Below, piece after piece: positions 2,885 to 50,300 of a stretch of DNA of 64,000 bases. Under the pieces are notes generated by a model, which saw nothing but the letters and a program-made list of their open reading frames with translations, did no database searches and was not told the origin of the DNA. Numbering within the stretch: the first letter of the stretch is position 1; each line of letters starts with the position of its first letter. Origin of the DNA: Thermoplasmatales archaeon (GTDB taxonomy: Archaea; Thermoplasmatota; Thermoplasmata; Thermoplasmatales; Thermoplasmataceae); contig DAIDBH010000019.1 in assembly GCA_027310185.1 (NCBI GenBank), forward strand, positions 1 through 64,000. Reading direction: 5' to 3'. The translations under genes and the position numbers were made by a program.

Positions 2885-5581
2885 TCAACTATTTTCCGTT
2901 TCCATCTTCAATGCCTTCTGAAATTCAATGAAAACAGTACTCTCAGGATTTCTTACACTTAGGATATCCCGGACCATGGAATCGATGGATGACTTATAGT
3001 TAACGAATTTTTGAATGGTGTTCTTCACATCCTCCAGTGCCCGTACCTCAATTGTTGGCTCAATCCTATCCCACCTCTTTTCTATCCTGTTTATATTCAC
3101 CTTTGTATCTCTCAGGCTTAAATACGCTATTTCCGATTCTATCTGGTCCATGCCCATTTTATTCTCAAGGGAAAAGAGTTTTGCGTAGAGTGATAACTGG
3201 TTAACATAATCCCTGTTTACCTTCTTTGATGTCTTGAAATCCACAATAACCGTTTTCTCTATATTTCCATCCATGTATGTATATAAACCATCAATCCTGC
3301 CTTCGACAGTGATGCCTGTCATAATATCAGGGTAAACATTGTTAACCTTCTGCTTGAACTTCATTTCAGATCCTATCCATTTACCTTTCTGTATTTCCCT
3401 TACATATTTGTCATATGAAATGAAATTGCTCCATGTTCTGGTCAGCTTTTCATCATCCAGTATTGGTGGTGTCTCGTGATTTTTTATGAAATTTTCTATG
3501 TAGCTGTGAATATCACTCCCAAATGTCAGGGCAGTGGATTTTGTCTGGATTCCAAGGACATATGCCTCAACAAACTTATCCAGTTCCTTAACCCTTTCTA
3601 GCATTGTAAAACTCAGGTTATTCAATCTGTCCATCTTCCTCTTCAAATAGTCCCTTACCCATGGCTTGAAATTCATTTTTAAATTCTCTCTTTCTGAAAT
3701 CTCTTTCATGCTTACAAATTCATTAATTACTACTTTATTTGCAAAGTCAATCTTTTTGCATGGTTCTAAATTATATCTTTCAGAAGATTTCTTCTCAGTT
3801 ATAATGTCAAGGGAATTCTTTGTTCTCGAAAGTGCAACAAAATCTATTCTGTTTTCCTCTCTTATTCTTTCATTCATACTGTAGCTCAGGCCATTGCTTT
3901 CCAGAATGGAGTTAACTATAAGATCAATAGCGCTTACATTCTTCTTCTGGTTGTATCTTGGAATATATATCACGTGATCAAATTCGAGTCCCTTTGCCTT
4001 ATGTACCGTGATTATGCAGATCCTGCCAGTGATCTCATCAACACTGTCCCTTGAATTCTCCTGAAGTATGTATTTCTGGAGACCGGCAAGTGAGTACTCC
4101 TCGCTCGTACCGAATCTTTCAAGGAAGATGGGAAGAGATTCAAACACATCCTTGGCAGCTTCAAAGGCTGATTCTCCTAAGGTAAATGAATTTGGGATTA
4201 TATAATCGCTGAAGAGCTGAAGAAGTTGATTCTTGTGACTTCCATATTTCTCCCTTAGTTCTATCAACTCCTTTGGAAGAACCTTCTTCAAATCATTTTC
4301 AAATCTCATCCTCTCCGCTATTTGAATACCTTCGTATAGGGGTATCTGGGAATAAATAGAATAAATCATTCCGATTATGCTGTCAGAAGTTCCATAGACA
4401 CCACCGACAAATTTTGCAATCTCCTGTCTCCACAGCTTCTCACCCTTTGTGCCGGAAATCTTCTGATGTGGGATATTTTTAAGTGTTAGTGAATCTGAAA
4501 GATCGTTTGCCTGTTCATTGGTTCTCACAATAATCCCAACTGATTTCTCATCATCCAGCCTCTTTAAAATATCTATAACTGCATCCACAGTATCTCCCTT
4601 ATCTTTCAACCTGATGAGTGTTACCTCACCGTCTCTGTCATTCATGCTCTTAAAGTGCTCAAGTTCAGGTGATAATTCTTCTGGTTCATGGGTACTGTAG
4701 AAGTTGCTGCAGTATTCCATAATATTTTTCGGTAACCTTCTTGTACCTTCTATGAATCTTTTTTCATAATCTTTTCCAGACATCATCTCCCTGAAGGCGC
4801 GAACATTACCTCCCTGAAACCCAAAAATTGCCTGTTTCATGTCCCCTACAGCATATATATTTTCTCCTACTTGCTTCACAAGTTCATATTCTATTTCACT
4901 CATATCCTGGACTTCGTCCACAAAAACGTACTGGAATTTATTGAAGTGTGCTCTGGAATAATTTACGGCTCTTAACAAGATATCGTTATAATCCATCTGA
5001 GATGCACTTTTTGAAGCTTCGTAGTCACGGAATATATCCACGAATCCATCACATAAAGTTTCCATTTCCTCAAGAGAATAACCGTTTACTCCATTACCAT
5101 TGTTATATTCCGCCCGTACCTTTTTCTTAAGCTCCTCAATGTTTATTTTATCTGGTAAAATTGCAAAACTCTTTAGGAATTTTATTGCATTTACTATCTG
5201 TCCAACGTTAACTATTGCTGGATAATCCCTGGAAAGTACTTCACCATCATAATTCATTATCTGCCTTGTCTCCAGGGATTTTAATATCTGGTATCTCAAG
5301 AATCTCTCAGGTATCAGGTCTCCAGTTTCTATTCTCTGGTTAATTATGCTTTGAGATAAACTGTGAAATGTATGGATCTCTGGCATCTTAATCGGTGAAT
5401 CCTTCATCTTGAGTATTATTCTTCTTTCCATCTCATCTCTTGCCTTATTTGTAAATGTAAGACACAAAATATTATCTGGATTTACACCTTCATGAAGAAG
5501 TTTTGAAACCTGAGTTGAAAGATCTTCTGTCTTGCCTGAACCGGGATTCGCAGAGACAAGTATCCTAGATTTACCTATCAT
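2885..5581 (-). CDS. UvrD/REP superfamily 1 helicase fused to a C-terminal PD-(D/E)XK nuclease (AddA/RecB-like architecture)
   Basis: ANPGSGKT, TFTNKA, TFHS, VDEVQD, VGDMKQAIFGFQG, TVHKAKGLEF, FVALSR; C-terminal FGSDIH, EGRID, IVDFKT, QLSLY. Confidence 0.92.
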   Translation of the reverse strand: MIGKSRILVSANPGSGKTEDLSTQVSKLLHEGVNPDNILCLTFTNKARDEMERRIILKMKDSPIKMPEIHTFHSLSQSIINQRIETGDLIPERFLRYQILKSLETRQIMNYDGEVLSRDYPAIVNVGQIVNAIKFLKSFAILPDKINIEELKKKVRAEYNNGNGVNGYSLEEMETLCDGFVDIFRDYEASKSASQMDYNDILLRAVNYSRAHFNKFQYVFVDEVQDMSEIEYELVKQVGENIYAVGDMKQAIFGFQGGNVRAFREMMSGKDYEKRFIEGTRRLPKNIMEYCSNFYSTHEPEELSPELEHFKSMNDRDGEVTLIRLKDKGDTVDAVIDILKRLDDEKSVGIIVRTNEQANDLSDSLTLKNIPHQKISGTKGEKLWRQEIAKFVGGVYGTSDSIIGMIYSIYSQIPLYEGIQIAERMRFENDLKKVLPKELIELREKYGSHKNQLLQLFSDYIIPNSFTLGESAFEAAKDVFESLPIFLERFGTSEEYSLAGLQKYILQENSRDSVDEITGRICIITVHKAKGLEFDHVIYIPRYNQKKNVSAIDLIVNSILESNGLSYSMNERIREENRIDFVALSRTKNSLDIITEKKSSERYNLEPCKKIDFANKVVINEFVSMKEISERENLKMNFKPWVRDYLKRKMDRLNNLSFTMLERVKELDKFVEAYVLGIQTKSTALTFGSDIHSYIENFIKNHETPPILDDEKLTRTWSNFISYDKYVREIQKGKWIGSEMKFKQKVNNVYPDIMTGITVEGRIDGLYTYMDGNIEKTVIVDFKTSKKVNRDYVNQLSLYAKLFSLENKMGMDQIESEIAYLSLRDTKVNINRIEKRWDRIEPTIEVRALEDVKNTIQKFVNYKSSIDSMVRDILSVRNPESTVFIEFQKALKMETENS

Positions 5582-41841: not shown

Positions 41842-42499
41842 GCACAAGCCAATTGTGTTCTTTGACATGGATGGGGTGCTCACCACAGAGAAGAGCAGCT
41901 GGAACTATGTTCATTCAAGACTGGGAGTTGATAACAACCTCAATTATTCACTTTTCAGGGCAGGAAAGATAGATTATCATGAATTTATGAGGCGTGATGT
42001 TAACCTGTGGATCCAGGAAATGGGTGAGGTACAGGTAAGCCAGATAAGGGAAATCCTTAATGAAATTGAACTGTTTCCAGGAGCAGTGGAAGCAACCGGA
42101 ACACTTGCTGCTGAGGGATTTCATCTTGTAATAGTATCAGGTGGATTGATGTGGCTGGCGGAAAGGGTCGGAAGACTTACGGGAATAAGTGATATTTATG
42201 CAAATATAATTCTATCACTGGGTGGAAAGGTACTGCCTGATGGGAAAGCTGTGGTGGACCCAAAAAGGAAGGATATAGTAGTAAACAGTGTTATAAGCAC
42301 TTATAAGCCTGAATATTCCATTTCAGTTGGGGATTCTCCAGATGATGAAAAGATGTTTATGGTCACCGACTATTCCATAAGCATGAACAATGAGCCGGGG
42401 TTCATAAATACCATGGGTTTTGACCTCAAAACTGATAACCTGAAGTCATGTGCTGATCTCATTCTGGGGATCAGGGATCAGAGAAATGAAATCACCTGA
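41804..42499 (+). CDS. HAD-superfamily phosphatase (phosphoserine phosphatase-like)
   Basis: FDMDGVL, VSGG, VGDSPDD; ATG at 41804 used. Confidence 0.88.
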   Translation: MKGELPSSLDHTEHKPIVFFDMDGVLTTEKSSWNYVHSRLGVDNNLNYSLFRAGKIDYHEFMRRDVNLWIQEMGEVQVSQIREILNEIELFPGAVEATGTLAAEGFHLVIVSGGLMWLAERVGRLTGISDIYANIILSLGGKVLPDGKAVVDPKRKDIVVNSVISTYKPEYSISVGDSPDDEKMFMVTDYSISMNNEPGFINTMGFDLKTDNLKSCADLILGIRDQRNEIT

Positions 42500-42500
42500 A

Positions 42501-43178
42501 ATGAGAAGGGAGGAGAAACTTCCCTTTGGAATAGGATGCATAGATCAGTTTCTTGAAGGTGGGATCGATCCAGGGGTAATTACGCAGATATATGGGGAAG
42601 GCGGTTCGGGAAAGACAAACATGGCTCTTCAGCTTACGGTATCTACATTATCCAGGGGAGACAAGGTCGTATATATTGATACAGAGGGATTCTCAAGCAA
42701 CCGTTTTCTGCAGATCTGCGGAGGAAATCAGGAATATTCAAACAACCTGATTCTTTTCACCCCGGAGAACATAGGTGAGCAGGAGGTATGTCTCATAAAG
42801 GCTGAGAGAATGATGCAGAATTCAGATGATATAAAACTTCTGGTTATTGATTCAATGACTGCACTGCTGAGAATTGAAAGAGATGAAAACCTGAAAAACC
42901 AGGGACTATCAAGGGATATATCCATTCTAAACACCATATGTAACAAACACAAGATTCCTGTTTTCATCACAAACCAGATATATTTTGACGTGGAGGAAAA
43001 CCAGATCACTCCATATGGGGGGTATCTCCTGAATCATTTCTCAAAGACAATACTTTCGATCAGGCGGTCAAGGGGAACCGGTAGGGAAGTGAAAATAGTG
43101 AAGCACAGGTCAATACTGGACGGAAAAGCCATTGAAATATTCATCAACAGTACAGGCCTGTCATGTACAGAGGCATGA
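42501..43178 (+). CDS. radB: DNA repair and recombination protein RadB
   Basis: GEGGSGKT, YIDTEG, VIDS, ITNQ, KHRS basic patch; lacks the RadA N-terminal domain; ATG at 42501 used. Confidence 0.92.
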   Translation: MRREEKLPFGIGCIDQFLEGGIDPGVITQIYGEGGSGKTNMALQLTVSTLSRGDKVVYIDTEGFSSNRFLQICGGNQEYSNNLILFTPENIGEQEVCLIKAERMMQNSDDIKLLVIDSMTALLRIERDENLKNQGLSRDISILNTICNKHKIPVFITNQIYFDVEENQITPYGGYLLNHFSKTILSIRRSRGTGREVKIVKHRSILDGKAIEIFINSTGLSCTEA

Positions 43179-43235
43179 ATTCTCAACTCAAGGCCTTTCA
43201 AAAAGATTTACATACTGGCACACATATGGAAGTAC

Positions 43236-44255
43236 ATGGGAGTTAATCTTGAGCCCATCCTGATAAAACACAAAACTCATATAAAGGATTTCTCAAATAA
43301 TACAGTTTCAGTGGATGCTTACAATCAGATCTACCAGTTCCTCAGTGCAATAAGGCAGCCAGACGGGACACCATTGATGGATTCTTCTGGAAAGGTAACA
43401 TCCCATCTAAGCGGTCTGTTTTACCGGACAATATCACTCATGGAAGAGGGTCTTAAACCTGTATACGTTTTCGATGGCAAGCCGTCCCCAATGAAACTGA
43501 GAACACTCGAGGAGAGGAAGGCAATAAAGGAGAACTCAGAAAGGGAACTGGAAAAGGCAATCATGACTTCAGACAGGGAAAAAATTGCAAGGTTGAAGAG
43601 AAGTATAAATCACATCACAAAGGACATGATTGATGAAAGCAAGCAACTACTCACATATATGGGATTGCCATATGTACAGGCTCCTTCTGAAGGGGAGTGC
43701 CAGGCATCATACATGAGTTCTACAGGAAAGGTAAATGCAGTCATCTCACAGGATTATGACTGCCTGTTGTTCGGTGCAAGGGAGGTTTTGAGGAATTTCA
43801 CCATATATGGAAAGAGAAGGGTTTCGAGCAGGAACATCTACGTTACTGTGGACCCGGAATACATAGATCTGAAGGAGAATCTCACCGGTATGAATATAAC
43901 AAGGAGTCAGCTGGTAGATATAGCCATAATGGTTGGAACGGATTTCAACAGTGGAGTTGAGAGAGTCGGCCCAAAGACAGCATTGAACCTGATCCAGAAG
44001 CACGGAAACCTGGAGATGGTCATCAAGGAGAAGGGTTACAGGATACCTCAATACGAAGAGGTGAGAAAACTATTCCTTGAGCCGGAGGTAACGGATGATT
44101 TCAGCGTCTCATTCGGAAAGCCTGAAGAAGAAAAAATATACTCGTTTCTCTGCGATCTTCACAACTTCGGTGAAAACAGGGTAAAACCATTCATAGAAAA
44201 ACTGAAAACAAGCCTTCAGAAGGGAAACCAGTCCAGTCTTGATTCATTTTTCTAG
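43236..44255 (+). CDS. fen: Flap endonuclease 1
   Basis: MGV start, DAYNQIYQFL, YVFDG, APSEGECQA, SQDYD, GTDFN, C-terminal PIP box QSSLDSFF. Confidence 0.96.
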   Translation: MGVNLEPILIKHKTHIKDFSNNTVSVDAYNQIYQFLSAIRQPDGTPLMDSSGKVTSHLSGLFYRTISLMEEGLKPVYVFDGKPSPMKLRTLEERKAIKENSERELEKAIMTSDREKIARLKRSINHITKDMIDESKQLLTYMGLPYVQAPSEGECQASYMSSTGKVNAVISQDYDCLLFGAREVLRNFTIYGKRRVSSRNIYVTVDPEYIDLKENLTGMNITRSQLVDIAIMVGTDFNSGVERVGPKTALNLIQKHGNLEMVIKEKGYRIPQYEEVRKLFLEPEVTDDFSVSFGKPEEEKIYSFLCDLHNFGENRVKPFIEKLKTSLQKGNQSSLDSFF

Positions 44256-45249: not shown

Positions 45250-45768
45250 CTATCTTAATCTTTCCCTACATATACTCCTGTACTTGCAGTTCACGCATCT
45301 TCCGGGGTTATCATGATTCCTGTTAGGGACACCTCTCACCCTCCTGATAAGTTGAGCTCTTGCAAGTACCCTGTCCTTCAATTCTGGACTGTTATTGATA
45401 TAGAACGATCTGTTCCGGTATTTTATAACACCGTACTGGATCATATTTTCAGGGTAAAGCTCCTGAAGGATGATGAAATAAACTCCCATTTGAATTATGT
45501 GCGGTTCCCAGGGTTGGTCGCCTATATTGCTGCTTTTGTACTCATAGGGAATTATTTGCCCACTGTTTTCTATCACTCTATCCGGCTTACCCGACAGGCC
45601 ATATCTTTTTGAAACCAGGATTTTCCCCTCTGCTTTCATGTCTCCATATATGAACCTTCCCCTGGGCATCTCATAATAGTCCACTCTCCTTCTAGCCTTA
45701 AGGAAATAGAAGACGAGAATTAACAGAACCACAATAAATGGGACGATGAAATAAACAGGAAGCAACAT
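45250..45768 (-). CDS. Cas4-like PD-(D/E)XK nuclease, C-terminal part, with N-terminal membrane anchor
   Basis: TM then KARRR; GKPD, PYEYKS, HIIQMGVY (QxxxY-type), C-terminal CVNCKYRSIC (three Fe-S Cys). Confidence 0.85.
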   Translation of the reverse strand: MLLPVYFIVPFIVVLLILVFYFLKARRRVDYYEMPRGRFIYGDMKAEGKILVSKRYGLSGKPDRVIENSGQIIPYEYKSSNIGDQPWEPHIIQMGVYFIILQELYPENMIQYGVIKYRNRSFYINNSPELKDRVLARAQLIRRVRGVPNRNHDNPGRCVNCKYRSICRERLR

Positions 45769-45769
45769 T

Positions 45770-46039
45770 TCAGACGAACACTACAAACATGAACACAATA
45801 ACAAGCAATATGGCAATTATGAGGGTAACACTTAGTTTCGAGTTTCTCTCGTGATCTATATCGGCATCCTCGTGAGCTATGGTGCCCCTATTCATCCTTT
45901 CAACTTTGTCAGCCGGGATTCTGTATCCTTCACGGGTATAATACCATGAGAGGGCACAGTAGTCAAACTCAGCAAGTTCCGATGCACTGATAATTCTTTC
46001 TCCCTCATCAGGGTTGTTTCTCGATCCAGATTCTGTCAT
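45770..46039 (-). CDS. Cas4-like N-terminal module with C-terminal membrane anchor
   Basis: ISASELAEFDYCALSWYY (first Fe-S Cys motif) and RGTIAH, then a hydrophobic tail helix. Confidence 0.75.
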   Translation of the reverse strand: MTESGSRNNPDEGERIISASELAEFDYCALSWYYTREGYRIPADKVERMNRGTIAHEDADIDHERNSKLSVTLIIAILLVIVFMFVVFV

Positions 46040-46781
46040 ATGAGCGCTCCTGTTTTAGTGCGATAGTACCATTCTTCCTGATAAACATACTGTATATAAA
46101 GAACTTTACCCTATCCTCCTTTGTTTCTCCCCACACTTCTTCCATGAAGAAAGAATCTTCCCTCATATTCATGATCTTCTGCATGATTGATTCAAGGTCT
46201 CTCTCAGGCTCACCAGAATTCAGTACTTCATAGATTTCTTCAACCTCTGCAACCTGTTCCATATGGGGCATCCTGACGATTTTTTCCCTGCTCCTTTCTG
46301 TTTTCCTCATAACCTCAATGAGTTCCACTAGCATGACCTTCCTCGTTTCGTGATGCTTGACTGGCATATTCAGGCTTATAAATTCCTTTTCCTCTATTTC
46401 CAAATCATTTACTTCTTCCTGTGATAAATCCTGATAATTCTCTACAGTCTCTTCAGCTTCTTTCTTGCCAAAGTTATCAATCAGGTCGTTAGCCTGCACA
46501 TACACTATTCCCCATGACCTGTATATTATATATCCTGCTTCTGCAATGGACATCAGACCTGCATTTGTTAATTCCCTTACTATAAGAACAAAATTAACAA
46601 CATCTACACGCCACGGATCTATTTCTCTTGCAATGCACCGTTCCATTATCTCTATAATGTTCTTCGTCTCTTCCTTTGTATCCTTGAAGTCGAGCTCTTC
46701 ATAGAACCTCGTATCAATGCCAATAGTTGATGCCTGAACAATTATTGTCCTTTTAAGATCAATTAGCTGTGTATCTTCCAT
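46008..46781 (-). CDS. scpA: Segregation and condensation protein A (kleisin)
   Basis: IDPWRVDV N-terminal kleisin motif; immediately downstream of smc with GGAGGTGA SD. Confidence 0.85.
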   Translation of the reverse strand: MEDTQLIDLKRTIIVQASTIGIDTRFYEELDFKDTKEETKNIIEIMERCIAREIDPWRVDVVNFVLIVRELTNAGLMSIAEAGYIIYRSWGIVYVQANDLIDNFGKKEAEETVENYQDLSQEEVNDLEIEEKEFISLNMPVKHHETRKVMLVELIEVMRKTERSREKIVRMPHMEQVAEVEEIYEVLNSGEPERDLESIMQKIMNMREDSFFMEEVWGETKEDRVKFFIYSMFIRKNGTIALKQERSYDRIWIEKQP

Positions 46782-49700
46782 CTATTCACCTCCAAAGCTT
46801 TTGGAAAAAATTTCCGTGCAACCTGCTGCTTTGTTCATGGTAACCCCGAATAGGGAGTTTGCGTACTTGCTCATGGCATTCTTCAATGATATCATAATGA
46901 TTTGAGAGGTATTTGAATTTTCCCTTAACAACTCACCCATTGCCTCAGCATTGGTACCATCCAGGAACATGTCAATTTCGTCAAGGAAATAAATGGGTGA
47001 GGGCTTGATTCTCTGGACCGCAACAATGAACGAAAGTGCTACCAGACTCTTCTCACCACCACTTAGCGACTGTAATTTTGTATATGTAGTGCCCTTAGGC
47101 TTTGCCTTTATCAACAATTCTGAATCCAGTGGTTTTGATTCATCGGAGAGATACATATCCACGTCACCTCCCCTCGTCAATCTCTTGAATATTTCCCTCA
47201 TCTCGACTTTTACCTTTCCATAAAGATCAAGAAGAACTCTTGTCTTTACCTCTTCCAGTTCTGCCATTAACTTAATAAGGGAGTCAACTTCCCTCTTCAG
47301 AATGTCAATTTTTTCAACCAGATTATCCCTTCTTTCCGTATCTCTCCTGAGATCTTCCTCTGCCAGCTGGTTTACTGCACCAATTTCCTGTAATTTTGCA
47401 ACCTTAACGGCAATTTCGCTGTTCGCCCTCTGTGCGCTTGAGTAGTCAGTAATAACATGACCACCGTTCTGCCTGAGTTCTTCCCTAAGTGCTGATAACC
47501 TTTCATTGAAGTTCTGTATCTTTATCTTTGAGGTGAGAACAGCATTTTCATGATTCTTCATTTCAGACTCCAACCTTGAACTTTTCTGACTGATATCTGA
47601 AATTTGCCTCTCTATTTCCTTCAGCCCCTGAATGATTTTTCTGTTATTTTCATTGAGCTTTTCCTCTTCCCCCTCGAGTCTTCCTATTTCATTTCCAAAT
47701 CTTGCAATTTCCTCTTCTATCCGATCTTTTTCTATAGTTTCTGCATTTATGTTCTTTATCAGATTGTCATCTTCCATCATCAACTCTGACTTTCTTTCTG
47801 ATATTTTCTTCATTGTTGTCTGATTGCTGGATTTAGTTGCCATGGTAGAATTTTGTTCATTACTTATCTTTTCAAGCTCCTTTTGAAGTTCTGAGAGATC
47901 ATTCCCCTCCTCCTTATTGTCACCTATGATCATATAAAGTTCATTCTTTCGCTTCTCAAGAGATGCTTTCTTGCTCTCCTCTCCTGCTATTTCATTCTGA
48001 AGTTTTTCAAGTGAAGCAGAACTGTTTTTCAGCTCAATTTTGAGGGTCTGAATCTCAAGTTCAAGTGATTCCCTGATTTTCTGGCTCTCCTTTAACTGGG
48101 ATTCCAGTGAATCAGACTTTCCCTTCCCTTCACCACCACTCTTTGATATATCCATCAGTTGTTTTGATACATCGTCATACTCCTGTCTCAAATTTCTCGT
48201 TTCACGATCAAGACTGTTGAATCTTTCTCTAAGTTCCTCAAGAAGTTTTTCCCTGTTTTCCAGTTCAGAAAAGTTGAATGTTTTCCTGGTCCTGTTCATG
48301 AATCCTCCTGATATTGCACCACTAGCCTCAAATATGTCCCCATCAAGAGTCACAATTCTAACGCCTGTCATATACTTCTTTGCACTTTCAGGAGTATCGA
48401 CAACAACAGTATCCTGGAACGTGTACCATATGGCGTTAGCATAAACATCCTGGCACTGAATCTGCTGGCTCAGTAGGGAAGTTGAACGGTCCTGCTGAAT
48501 AATAGTAAGGGCCTTACCTCTTGGTCTTCCAGGCAAGATCTTATTCAGTGGGATAAAGGTTACACGTCCGAGCTTCTTCTCTCTCAGTAATTCAATGCAT
48601 TCCTGGGCCACATCTTCATTATCAACTACTATGGAATTCAGTCTTCCACCTGCTGCTGCCTCCACAGCAAGCGCATACCTGTCGTCATAACTTATGAGTT
48701 CTCCTATGGATCTGTGTATTCCAGATATGGCTCCTCTTGCCTTTGCTTCCATTATTGCAGAAATGGATTTGTTGGCGAAGCCCTGGGAGCCCATTTCAGA
48801 TCTCATTCTTTCCACTTCCTTTCCGAGGGAATCCATTTTTGATCTAGTCTCTGTTCTTTCTCTTTCTCGATCCTTGATCTGGGATTGCAGTTCATAATAT
48901 TTCTTACTCAGGGACTCGTTTCTGGACCTGTTTCCTCCCTCGTCCTTCTTGATCTGGTTTAACTGCCATTGAGTTTCAGATAATCTGTATTTCTCGTTTG
49001 TAAGGCTCTCTTCTTTAATACCAAGCTTTGTTTCTATTCCCTTGAATCTCTTTGATTCCTCAGACTCCTCTCTTCTTATTTTTTCAGTAATATTTGAATT
49101 CTCTTTAAGTTCCTTCTCTATAATAGTCAGCTCATCAGTTGCCTTCCTGTACTCTTCTGTCTTATTTCTCTGAAGTTCTATCTTCTGATTTATCTGGGCC
49201 CTCAGAGAAGTTTCCCTATATTTCAATTCTTCTTCCCTGCTCATGAGCTCATTAAAGGACTTTGCAAGATTATCTATCTCCTCATCTATCTCTTCGATCT
49301 TGCCTGTATTTGTTTCTATAAGACCACGTTCTTTATCTATATTCATGCTGATGTTTGAAGCATTTATTTCTGCTCTGGCTCTTTCCAGTTTTTTGGATTC
49401 TATACCTTTTCTTATACCTTCAAGCTCCTTCTGAATCCTTTCTCCAATTCCTTTCTCTATTTCCATTCTCTTCTGCGTGAGTGTCTCATGTTCTCTGGTT
49501 AGATCATCCAGTAGGGCCTTAATTTCAGCCATTTTCTTTTCACTCTCTTCCATTGATTGCTGATGGCCACTGAGATCTATCTCAACTCCACGGATCTGGA
49601 TGGAGAGGGCAGTGGCTTTTAAATCAACAATTTCACTGTTAAGACTCCTATATTCTCTCAGCTTTTCAGCCTCTTTCTCTATTATTGCAATATTTTCTTC

Positions 49701-50300
49701 AATCTCTGTTCGCAATGTTTCTGACGCAAGTATTGTCTTATCGATCTCATCGATCTTTTCTTTTGCAGAATTGATCCTCATATTGTAGGCATCTATTCCT
49801 GCTATGGATTCCAGCAATTTTCTTCTTTCATTTCCACTGACATATATAAATTTATTTATGTCTCCCTGCAGGACGAAGCTATAGGAGTCCAGCTGGATTC
49901 CGATATTTTCGAGAAACCTGTCAACCTCACTGTGCTTTGATCTCTTGCCATTTATGAAATAAGTACTGTTTATTTCATTACCACTCTCTTCAATAACTCT
50001 TGATATTTCCACTGTTTCAAAAGATTCATCATCTCTATCTTCGACAAATACTGCCTTGACCTCTGCCTTGGAAATCTTCTTATCCCCATTGCCAGGATTG
50101 TGTATTAAATCATCGAGTTTGTCAGCTCTCACAGTCTTGGATGATCTTGTACCGAGGACAAACAGGAGGGAGTCACCTATATTGCTTTTCCCACTACCAT
50201 TGGGACCAGCTATCATGCTCAATCCTGGCCTGAAATCTATCTTCATGCCCCTATGGCAGAAAGATTTGAAATTTTTAATTTCTAAGCTGTATAGTCTCAA
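46782..50300 (-). CDS. smc: Chromosome partition protein SMC
   Basis: NFKSF, GPNGSGKSN, VLQG, hinge GRVTFIPL and GAISGG, LSGGEKS, FLDEID; GGGGTGA SD before TTG start. Confidence 0.97.
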   Translation of the reverse strand: MRLYSLEIKNFKSFCHRGMKIDFRPGLSMIAGPNGSGKSNIGDSLLFVLGTRSSKTVRADKLDDLIHNPGNGDKKISKAEVKAVFVEDRDDESFETVEISRVIEESGNEINSTYFINGKRSKHSEVDRFLENIGIQLDSYSFVLQGDINKFIYVSGNERRKLLESIAGIDAYNMRINSAKEKIDEIDKTILASETLRTEIEENIAIIEKEAEKLREYRSLNSEIVDLKATALSIQIRGVEIDLSGHQQSMEESEKKMAEIKALLDDLTREHETLTQKRMEIEKGIGERIQKELEGIRKGIESKKLERARAEINASNISMNIDKERGLIETNTGKIEEIDEEIDNLAKSFNELMSREEELKYRETSLRAQINQKIELQRNKTEEYRKATDELTIIEKELKENSNITEKIRREESEESKRFKGIETKLGIKEESLTNEKYRLSETQWQLNQIKKDEGGNRSRNESLSKKYYELQSQIKDRERERTETRSKMDSLGKEVERMRSEMGSQGFANKSISAIMEAKARGAISGIHRSIGELISYDDRYALAVEAAAGGRLNSIVVDNEDVAQECIELLREKKLGRVTFIPLNKILPGRPRGKALTIIQQDRSTSLLSQQIQCQDVYANAIWYTFQDTVVVDTPESAKKYMTGVRIVTLDGDIFEASGAISGGFMNRTRKTFNFSELENREKLLEELRERFNSLDRETRNLRQEYDDVSKQLMDISKSGGEGKGKSDSLESQLKESQKIRESLELEIQTLKIELKNSSASLEKLQNEIAGEESKKASLEKRKNELYMIIGDNKEEGNDLSELQKELEKISNEQNSTMATKSSNQTTMKKISERKSELMMEDDNLIKNINAETIEKDRIEEEIARFGNEIGRLEGEEEKLNENNRKIIQGLKEIERQISDISQKSSRLESEMKNHENAVLTSKIKIQNFNERLSALREELRQNGGHVITDYSSAQRANSEIAVKVAKLQEIGAVNQLAEEDLRRDTERRDNLVEKIDILKREVDSLIKLMAELEEVKTRVLLDLYGKVKVEMREIFKRLTRGGDVDMYLSDESKPLDSELLIKAKPKGTTYTKLQSLSGGEKSLVALSFIVAVQRIKPSPIYFLDEIDMFLDGTNAEAMGELLRENSNTSQIIMISLKNAMSKYANSLFGVTMNKAAGCTEIFSKSFGGE

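Follow-up and report, generated by a model that had tools for sequence, protein, structure and literature searches.

A pair of adjacent genes in a 64,000-nucleotide stretch of DNA from a Thermoplasmatales archaeon (GenBank assembly GCA_027310185.1, contig DAIDBH010000019.1, positions 1 to 64,000; hereafter the window) appears to encode two complementary halves of a single Cas4-family protein, each with its own membrane anchor, an assignment supported by family models and hydropathy. Nucleases of the Cas4 family are known from CRISPR adaptation as soluble enzymes of a single chain, whereas this pair, here called A (89 amino acids, aa) and B (172 aa), would represent a large clade outside CRISPR loci that is membrane-embedded and, in its commonest form, divided. 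Our reading, to which we assign a probability of about 65%, is that A and B together make up one membrane-anchored Cas4-family nuclease of two subunits, with a site assembled across them and a role in chromosome maintenance. The evidence comes from the complementary placement of A and B on Cas4 models, the invariance of their four cysteines, a predicted complex and the joint retention of both genes in archaea and in Chloroflexota.

The gene pair and its assignment to the Cas4 family

The pair and its parts, with transmembrane (TM) helices called from hydropathy, are located in the window as follows.

45770..46039, minus strand: gene A, 89 aa, predicted N-terminal half of a Cas4-family protein with a C-terminal membrane anchor
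45842..46000, minus strand: soluble part of A (aa 14-66), with the C28 helix (codon 45956-45958) and the G52/H56 helix (H56 codon 45872-45874)
45773..45835, minus strand: predicted C-terminal TM helix of A (aa 69-89), with which A ends (tail anchor)
45766..45772, minus strand: A-B junction, TGA-A-ATG
45250..45768, minus strand: gene B, 172 aa, predicted N-terminal membrane anchor with a C-terminal nuclease core
45685..45765, minus strand: predicted N-terminal TM helix of B (aa 2-23) and KARRR (aa 24-28, at 45685-45699)
45253..45663, minus strand: predicted nuclease core of B (aa 36-172), with codons for D63 (45580-45582), E76 (45541-45543), K78 (45535-45537), Q93 (45490-45492), Y97 (45478-45480), C158 (45295-45297), C161 (45286-45288) and C167 (45268-45270)

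A preliminary description of the window had reported both open reading frames (ORFs), their motifs, anchors and junction, and all are present as it described them. The 89-aa ORF does hold the elements that start a Cas4: its sole cysteine, C28, lies inside ISASELAEFDYCALSWYY, and the chain reads ...ISASELAEFDYC(28)ALSWYY...RG(52)TIAH(56)E..., where the RGTIAH motif gives G52 and H56. It closes with a 19-residue hydrophobic stretch (residues 71-89, Kyte-Doolittle mean 3.47) that no residue follows. The 172-aa ORF, the frame of which is +1 relative to that of A and begins one base past its stop, starts with a hydrophobic helix (residues 2-20, Kyte-Doolittle 3.02) followed by KARRR, and its codon positions confirm the motifs GKPD (D63), EYK (E76, K78), QMGVY (Q93, Y97) and CVNCKYRSIC (C158, C161, C167). 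The pair has four cysteines in total, one in A and three in B (C158-x2-C161-x5-C167), and so presents the four-cysteine Cas4 pattern of one N-terminal residue and a C-terminal CX2CX5C, but spread over two polypeptides. The description had read the pair as a Cas4-like nuclease split into two genes, each half with its own membrane anchor, and both the family models and the hydropathy bear this out, the division falling between motif I and motif II.

Placed on these models, A and B map to complementary parts. On TIGR00372 (cas4, 180 positions) A aligns to 2-43 (E 0.16) and B to 54-179 (E 7.8e-15); on Pfam PDDEXK_1 (247 positions) A covers 2-45 (E 0.0023, under the cut-off) and B 118-247 (E 3.6e-8); on the PADLOC Cas4 model PDLC01447 (161 positions) the corresponding ranges are 4-53 (E 0.0013) and 32-159 (E 1.7e-13). 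The profile check of each half advised in the preliminary description was thus borne out as regards mapping, but not for A alone, which stays under the curated thresholds. B by itself exceeds the Pfam cut-offs (PF01930, 25.7 bits against 22.7; PDDEXK_1, 34.1 bits against 22), and its profile matches the solved Cas4 chain 8d3l_I (E 5.9e-6) with E76-x-K78 and the three cysteines aligned. A fused homolog (L030) scores 89.8 bits on TIGR00372, above the cut-off of 65. Conservation is centred on the same residues: C28 is invariant in 19/19 A sequences and the three B cysteines in 19/19 B sequences; A19, C28, W32, G52, H56 and H63 are invariant across 28 of 28 archaeal and Chloroflexota A sequences; and G60, D63, Y97, Y117, C158, C161 and C167 are invariant in all 80 B-like representatives, with E76, K78 and Q93 kept in 79 of the 80.

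Lysine and arginine residues flank both TM helices on the side of the soluble domain, the charges preceding the helix in A and following it, as KARRR, in B. By the positive-inside rule, and given that an Fe-S domain needs the cytoplasm, both soluble parts probably face the cytoplasm, a placement with which the even TM counts of the fused relatives described below agree. Cultured Cuniculiplasma isolates come from sites of pH 1-1.5, according to passages of PMC5155288; if the present organism is a Cuniculiplasma, such an acidic habitat would make it all the more necessary for the Fe-S domain to be cytoplasmic.

The halves were also modelled as a complex, the input being residues 33-172 of B and 14-68 of A, each with a 19-row alignment, plus a riding 4Fe-4S cluster. 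The interface score ipSAE was 0.85, 0.85 and 0.84 for A-B against 0.00 for the best of three controls (among solved complexes 58 of 80 attain this mark, among mismatched pairs 2 of 110), a score that may reflect memory of solved single-chain Cas4 structures, likeness to which can let the halves of a split gene pass, and that was obtained with our own alignments and a ligand that differ from the calibration of the tool. The runs share at least 78% of contacts, with a partner pLDDT (predicted local distance difference test) of at least 62, and the confident contacts join A 14-34, the C28 helix, to B 57-61, 88-97, 134-152, 157 and 161-169, the last of these in the CX2CX5C region. The heterodimer with converging cysteines that the preliminary description had proposed is therefore what the model, and the model only, predicts, with C28 docked on the region of the other three. 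For a fused 330-aa homolog AlphaFold2 gave a pLDDT of 86.7 and a pTM (predicted template modelling score) of 0.74, with four long helices between the halves (38-83, 89-111, 122-147 and 152-190) preceding a beta core. Searched against the PDB with Foldseek, this model comes nearest to the Cas4 chains 7mi5_A (E 1.7e-4) and 8d3l_I, followed by Dna2, Pcal_0546, MGME1, SSO0001 and ACE1. A Cas4-like fold is thus predicted for the fused homolog, and a docking model alone for the pair in the window.

Co-occurrence of the halves in archaea and Chloroflexota

The two-gene arrangement is real and conserved. Among 41 related genomes searched, B was found in 28, including 16 of the 16 other genomes of the window's genus, and a profile of A finds A in exactly those 28, the remaining 13 holding neither; these genomes are kin and non-independent, so that the co-occurrence is no statistical test. 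Thirty loci were extracted and their reading frames read. The genes are split in 22 of them, 20 from the window's family and two that are second copies in another family, with identity falling to 21% for A and 31% for B while ORFs, TM helices and cysteines are all retained; the hydrophobic C-terminal tail is present in every A homolog read. The other eight hold a single ORF of 322-330 aa (about 325 aa). The survey for the same arrangement proposed in the preliminary description accordingly found it to recur, in these 22 loci and in Chloroflexota, but not to be universal, eight of the related loci being fused. Three genomes of family f5, in the same order (G028, G032 and G035; loci L023-L027), carry a 4-TM fused gene plus a separate split A-B pair, that is, two paralogs.

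Beyond the archaea, a scan of species-representative genomes with a 13-row B-like alignment and the pattern QLAAYCLLV confirmed at least 591 among at least 600 stretches, and the locus counts that follow refer to the best 80 stretches. All 80 come from metagenome-assembled genomes (MAGs) of Chloroflexota (Anaerolineae, Thermoflexales, Caldilineae, Roseilinea and others), an outcome of the search pattern from which nothing follows about other phyla. An A-like ORF lies within reach of B in 56 of them, directly upstream in 51 and one gene further upstream in five, and reads IRASEIGQYxYCAxAWWLG...G..AH..HGR, followed by a hydrophobic tail. No A-like ORF occurs within 2.5 kb of B at the remaining 24 loci, five of which are ended upstream by the contig end. 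When whole genomes lacking a linked A were searched, each of the five tested held exactly one A-like gene elsewhere (E 1e-25 to 1e-30). These unlinked yet co-retained halves are the strongest comparative evidence, from sequence, that A and B act together in trans. At one locus (L058) a gene for an L,D-transpeptidase stands between A and B. As a lead only, the protein-atlas clusters nearest to A are labelled 'hypothetical protein' and come from Chloroflexota and Bacillota.

Genomic context and proposed function

Immediately upstream of the pair, and on the same strand, lie two genes of chromosome organisation.

46782..50300, minus strand: smc (TIGR02169 SMC_prok_A, 741.6 bits, cut-off 729.4), immediately upstream of scpA
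46008..46781, minus strand: putative diverged scpA (kleisin), 257 aa, its last 32 nucleotides (nt) overlapping the start of A

Neither Pfam nor NCBIfam gives the 257-aa gene a match, and a search of the entire genome with Pfam SMC_ScpA is empty at a threshold as lax as E <= 1. By BLASTP (E 2e-17 to 5e-9) it is related to five proteins of the same order, encoded at places that match SMC_ScpA above the cut-off, and it looks like a strongly diverged kleisin. The order smc, scpA (the 257-aa gene), A, B, with tyrS convergent, is kept in 20 of 20 same-family loci. Just beyond tyrS, at 42450-44255 on the plus strand, stand genes for RadB (TIGR02237, 200.4 bits) and FEN-1 (TIGR03674, 470.5 bits), which makes the region from RadB to smc rich in DNA-maintenance genes. 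The common gene order in Chloroflexota is a different one: ssb, DUF3467, a translin-like gene of about 215 aa, A and B (L040-L119; for instance L045:602-2129 and L066:688-2211), with NAD kinase often coming next. At 49 of the 80 loci the translin-like gene precedes the pair; of the copies tested, one exceeds the Pfam cut-off. Searches by tblastn for ssb, DUF3467, the translin-like gene and NAD kinase beside the unlinked A or B of the five Chloroflexota genomes gave no match at E <= 1e-3. Both contexts are DNA-handling ones, each confined to one lineage.

On the reading favoured here, A and B would be subunits of a RecB-like PD-(D/E)XK, [4Fe-4S] nuclease. A would be tail-anchored and contribute, from its 68 cytoplasmic residues, C28 as the first cysteine of the cluster and H56 as the histidine of motif I. 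B would be anchored by its N-terminal helix, with the N-terminus outside and KARRR inside, and would provide the beta-sheet core that carries D63, E76-x-K78 and Q93xxxY97, together with the other three cysteines of the cluster. Since neither chain has the full ligand set, cluster and active site would form only where the soluble parts dock at the cytoplasmic face of the membrane. The two genes probably share expression with smc and scpA and are likely to be coupled in translation, and the likeliest job of their products would be the cutting or trimming of DNA, whether ends or single strands, at the membrane, in chromosome maintenance or repair. The structure of the two genes, their conservation and co-occurrence and the range of the family are shown by the sequences; docking is predicted by the complex model, topology suggested by the positive-inside rule and the cytoplasmic requirement of the cluster, nuclease activity by the conserved motifs and the cellular role by the neighbouring genes.

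Several points weigh against this reading. The halves are weak in places as Cas4 matches: B reaches 55.2 bits on TIGR00372, under its cut-off of 65, and A lies under every curated cut-off (18.4 against 22 bits for PDDEXK_1, 11.8 against 65 for TIGR00372). A profile of A run against PDB sequences retrieved no Cas4, its matches being a designed coiled coil and ferritins at E >= 0.0035 (the ferritin noise at E > 0.03), so that the assignment of A rests on family models, fused homologs and co-occurrence. The H56 helix is not among the confident contacts of the complex model, where the partner pLDDT is only 62-65, and the possible memory of known structures noted above counts here too; binding, cluster and activity of A-B are all predicted. 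As to the role, the smc-scpA linkage is limited to one family, which makes the argument one from lineage-limited synteny, and in the five genomes examined from three other families the fused homologs have unrelated housekeeping genes around them, scpA being located elsewhere. No conserved neighbourhood of the fused genes is shared beyond one genus; the genes next to them encode an MBL-fold protein, PfkB, DUF2070, Trm1, a nucleotidyl transferase, DUF2240 and RFC. Contigs from two RNA-library runs do span scpA-A-B, but they are assembled contigs that probably stem from the source sample, and so show neither transcription nor an operon. Lastly, some close relatives have lost catalytic residues.

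This loss affects five species of the window's genus. At L019-L022 (genomes G009, G010, G001 and G005) Tyr takes the place of H56 in A, and B has PMMFR where PYEYK is expected (E76 to Met, K78 to Arg); at L028 (G002) GKPD has become GRPS (D63 to Ser) and Q93 has become Leu. All five pairs retain the four cysteines, both TM helices, intact ORFs and the smc-scpA/tyrS synteny, and degraded motifs beside kept cysteines imply that nuclease chemistry is not always what selection preserves. To judge from these alignments, the putative Fe-S site, and not catalysis, is the one feature conserved throughout. The pair might then be mainly a non-catalytic membrane Fe-S module, a redox or iron sensor or a DNA-tethering scaffold in which nuclease activity is secondary or dispensable, and the standing of the four cysteines as the most conserved feature, in the 19 A, 19 B and 80 B-like sequences alike, agrees with this. 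We nonetheless hold it unlikely: the window copy and 79-80 of the 80 B-like representatives keep D, ExK and QxxxY, which speaks for catalysis in most members, and the branches that lead to the degraded lineages are very long, at 1.29 and 2.11 substitutions per site, as expected under relaxed or changed constraint in side branches.

The preliminary description had also noted that no cas1, cas2 or array is in the window, which holds: the window contains no tandem array, and the only Cas1 match of the genome is on another contig, within a type I-G-like CRISPR-Cas module (contig C5, about 7.8-10.8 kb; locus L013) comprising Csb2 (TIGR02165) and then a 540-aa Cas4g/Cas1g fusion (NF049935, 744 bits). 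With no cas1, cas2 or array next to it, A-B is a solo Cas4 and not a CRISPR-adaptation Cas4. The preliminary description had suggested an assembly-gated nuclease at the membrane that might, for example, act on incoming DNA. Defence by a membrane-tethered enzyme, with foreign DNA degraded where it enters, is nevertheless conceivable, as Cas4-family nucleases take part in CRISPR adaptation and work with Argonautes, according to titles and abstracts in the literature, the best PADLOC matches of the pair are Cas4 models, and a membrane site would suit an attack on entering DNA. We consider a defence role quite improbable. No linked defence gene was found in any context read; the neighbours over those contexts (smc, scpA, tyrS, ssb, DUF3467, translin-like, NAD kinase, MBL-fold, PfkB, Trm1 and RFC) are chromosome-maintenance or housekeeping genes. 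Defence genes are typically found in variable islands, whereas the synteny of A and B is stable and vertical within families, with a single copy per genome in most genomes searched.

Junctions, fused relatives and known systems

Varied junctions separate A from B in the split loci: TGA-A-ATG, TAG-C-ATG, TAA-A-ATG, TAA-T-ATG and TGA-N4-ATG occur, as do overlapping stop and start codons (L018, L028) and a 40-nt overlap (L026). A programmed +1 ribosomal frameshift at the stop of A, making a single fused 2-TM protein from two ORFs that serve as a recoding device, would find some footing in the 18 loci of the window's genus with a spacer (L001-L011, L016, L019-L022), where B follows the stop after 1 or 4 nt and in the +1 frame, so that skipping one base at the stop would join the frames. 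Yet all three stop codons are used, the junctions share no visible slippery or stimulator sequence, each locus of that genus supplies B with an ATG, stop and start overlap in the other frame at L018 and L028 (the latter from the window's genus) besides the longer overlap at L026, and some Chloroflexota pairs are unlinked or parted by a whole gene, all of which leaves recoding very improbable. That the ORFs are decaying remnants of a TM-hairpin Cas4-like gene recently disrupted by a frameshift or stop, or the product of an assembly error, is practically excluded: although fused homologs exist in the same order (8/30 loci) and elsewhere, and B starts in the +1 frame just one base past the stop of A, the 22 split loci keep intact ORFs and conserved motifs down to the low identities given above, with junctions that differ, contigs of two other studies match the window over 45418-45814 without a single difference or gap, the Chloroflexota share the split, including unlinked pairs in 5/5 genomes tested, and the clade of the window (support 98) falls outside the 4-TM fused clade (support 96), albeit in a weakly resolved tree. 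The same contigs report no indel across the 2 kb compared, a stretch that includes 45766-45772, where the preliminary description had called for a check of reads. Conserved splitting, clean contigs over the junction and the Chloroflexota pairs together refute a broken gene, in keeping with the earlier view of TGA-A-ATG as the junction of an intact pair.

The fused relatives make the correspondence of the halves explicit. The eight single-ORF loci of the same order have four hydrophobic segments between residues ~60 and ~175, and on a profile of 113 fused proteins (331 positions) A aligns to 3-51 (E 1.4e-8) and B to 183-330, from which the split pair corresponds to the N-half with the first TM helix and the last TM helix with the C-half. 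Of 2581 candidates in a word-indexed search with the fused 330-aa protein, 945 reached E <= 0.001. The best 120 are nearly all of ~320-350 aa with ~97% coverage and, where named, come from records labelled Thermoplasmata, Thermoplasmatota, Natronoplasma or Saliniplasma under the protein names 'CRISPR-associated protein Cas4' or 'PD-(D/E)XK nuclease family protein'.

For a wider survey, a profile of 19 B sequences was run against 1.84 billion protein representatives. It matched 1916 of them with E <= 0.001; the stricter limit of 1e-10 is reached by 733 and that of 1e-30 by 25. The best 150 of these matches divide by length as follows.

Up to 200 aa: 107 proteins; N-half in 1 (198 aa, no TM); hydrophobic segment starting within the first 25 residues in 96; CxxCxxxxxC in 106
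201-310 aa: 18 proteins; N-half in 11; about two TM segments
311-360 aa: 18 proteins; N-half in 17; four TM segments
More than 360 aa: 7 proteins; N-half in 5; up to about ten hydrophobic segments; largest 534-596 aa

Named records include Methanothrix sp. (173 aa, B-like), Methermicoccus shengliensis (266 aa), Methanofollis formosanus (274 aa) and a Thermoplasmata MAG (596 aa). The pair thus appears to belong to a large family of Archaea and Bacteria, in which, by these matches, the split, B-like form with one TM helix is the commonest. The interpretation offered in the preliminary description is accordingly upheld in part, for the split Cas4 pair and, as a prediction, for its docking, but the pair is no local oddity, being a member of a large family. 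Four of the largest proteins (P0171, P0175, P0178 and P0185; 534-596 aa), one of them labelled as from a Thermoplasmata MAG, have about 8-10 hydrophobic segments between the N-half and the C-half.

A tree of 161 rows over 138 C-half columns (FastTree) leaves 84 of 158 inner branches unresolved, and its root, on a long outgroup branch, is unsure. Within these limits the family of the window forms a clade (support 98) that groups with other split forms, a separate clade (support 96) takes in the 4-TM and larger forms, and several 2-TM fused forms are nested among split ones, the starred branches forcing at least four changes of the 'split' label. The conclusion is limited to this: fission or fusion took place more than once, in a direction that the tree does not give, and the pair of the window is no recent break of the 4-TM gene of the same order. 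The suggestion that a TM hairpin had been inserted into Cas4 and cut at its outer loop fits the fused relatives with two TM helices (N-half in 11/18 of 201-310 aa) and four (17/18 of 311-360 aa), but the fused relatives of the same order have four and fall in a different clade of this weakly resolved tree.

A wider scheme, which we regard as doubtful, would make the pair an ancient archaeal and bacterial module: a membrane-embedded Cas4-type nuclease with an inter-subunit cluster and active site that has repeatedly switched between two-gene and fused forms of two, four or more TM helices, works with SMC-ScpA in Cuniculiplasma-like archaea or with SSB and a translin-like protein in Chloroflexota on DNA at the membrane, and uses cluster assembly as an iron- or redox-sensitive on-switch.

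Compared with known systems, A-B shares with the CRISPR Cas4 proteins (Cas4/Cas1/Cas2 complexes 7mi5 and 7mi4, type I-C 8d3l, SSO0001 4ic1, Pcal_0546 4r5q) the N-terminal Cys helix, the motif-I His, D, ExK, QxxxY and CX2CX5C; the metal site of SSO0001 is made up of His62, Asp99, residue 113 (given as Asp113) and Lys115, according to parts of PMC13621843. Known Cas4 proteins are single soluble chains of ~160-220 aa, whereas the A-B chain is interrupted between motifs I and II by membrane helices and divided between two genes; CRISPR Cas4 stands beside cas1, cas2 or an array, neighbours that A-B lacks, the Cas4g/Cas1g fusion being elsewhere in the genome. The nuclease domains of AddB, Dna2 and AdnAB, and MGME1, share the predicted fold, appearing among the lower-ranked Foldseek matches of the fused homolog, and the first three have the cluster of one plus three cysteines, for which the concept of an 'iron staple' exists; unlike A-B, they are domains of large helicase-nucleases or soluble enzymes, neither split nor membrane-embedded. 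A further likeness is that of the fused membrane-inserted homologs (~265-300 aa with two TM helices, ~320-340 aa with four, 534-596 aa with ~8-10 segments), the halves of which are homologous to A and B with TM helices at the same insertion point. They differ in being one polypeptide instead of two, and the 4-TM forms of the same order are not nearest to the window pair in the tree, its resolution being weak.

The solo-Cas4 genes described by Hudaiberdiev et al. (2017, PMC5704561) and in Methanosarcina mazei (PMC12501428), as far as the parts of these sources consulted go, resemble A-B in being Cas4-family genes outside CRISPR-cas loci. The main text of PMC5704561, the supplementary tables of which could list such clades, does not mention 'Thermoplasma', 'split' or 'insertion', and has 'membrane' only in a gene-name legend and 'insert' only for a helicase; 'transmembrane' is absent from the abstract of PMC12501428. 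The full-text literature, including PMC5704561, PMC13621843 and PMC5155288, supplements apart, gave no description of a membrane-inserted or split Cas4, and a widespread clade of two-subunit membrane-anchored Cas4-family proteins has apparently gone undescribed so far. As neither gene product has a complete Fe-S or active site, the pair would offer a natural system for an inter-subunit [4Fe-4S] cluster and a composite nuclease site, and it points to DNA processing at the cytoplasmic membrane in archaea and bacteria. It also calls for a correction of annotation, since B halves and fused forms are labelled 'CRISPR-associated protein Cas4'. These predictions can be taken to the bench, the 2-TM fused form being carried by the records of Methermicoccus shengliensis and Methanofollis formosanus, and cultured Cuniculiplasma being mentioned in passages of PMC5155288. 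A separate gene of the window, at 2885-5581 on the minus strand, encodes an 898-aa UvrD-helicase protein with a C-terminal PDDEXK_1 domain, a UvrD-Cas4-like fusion of the type discussed in parts of PMC5704561.

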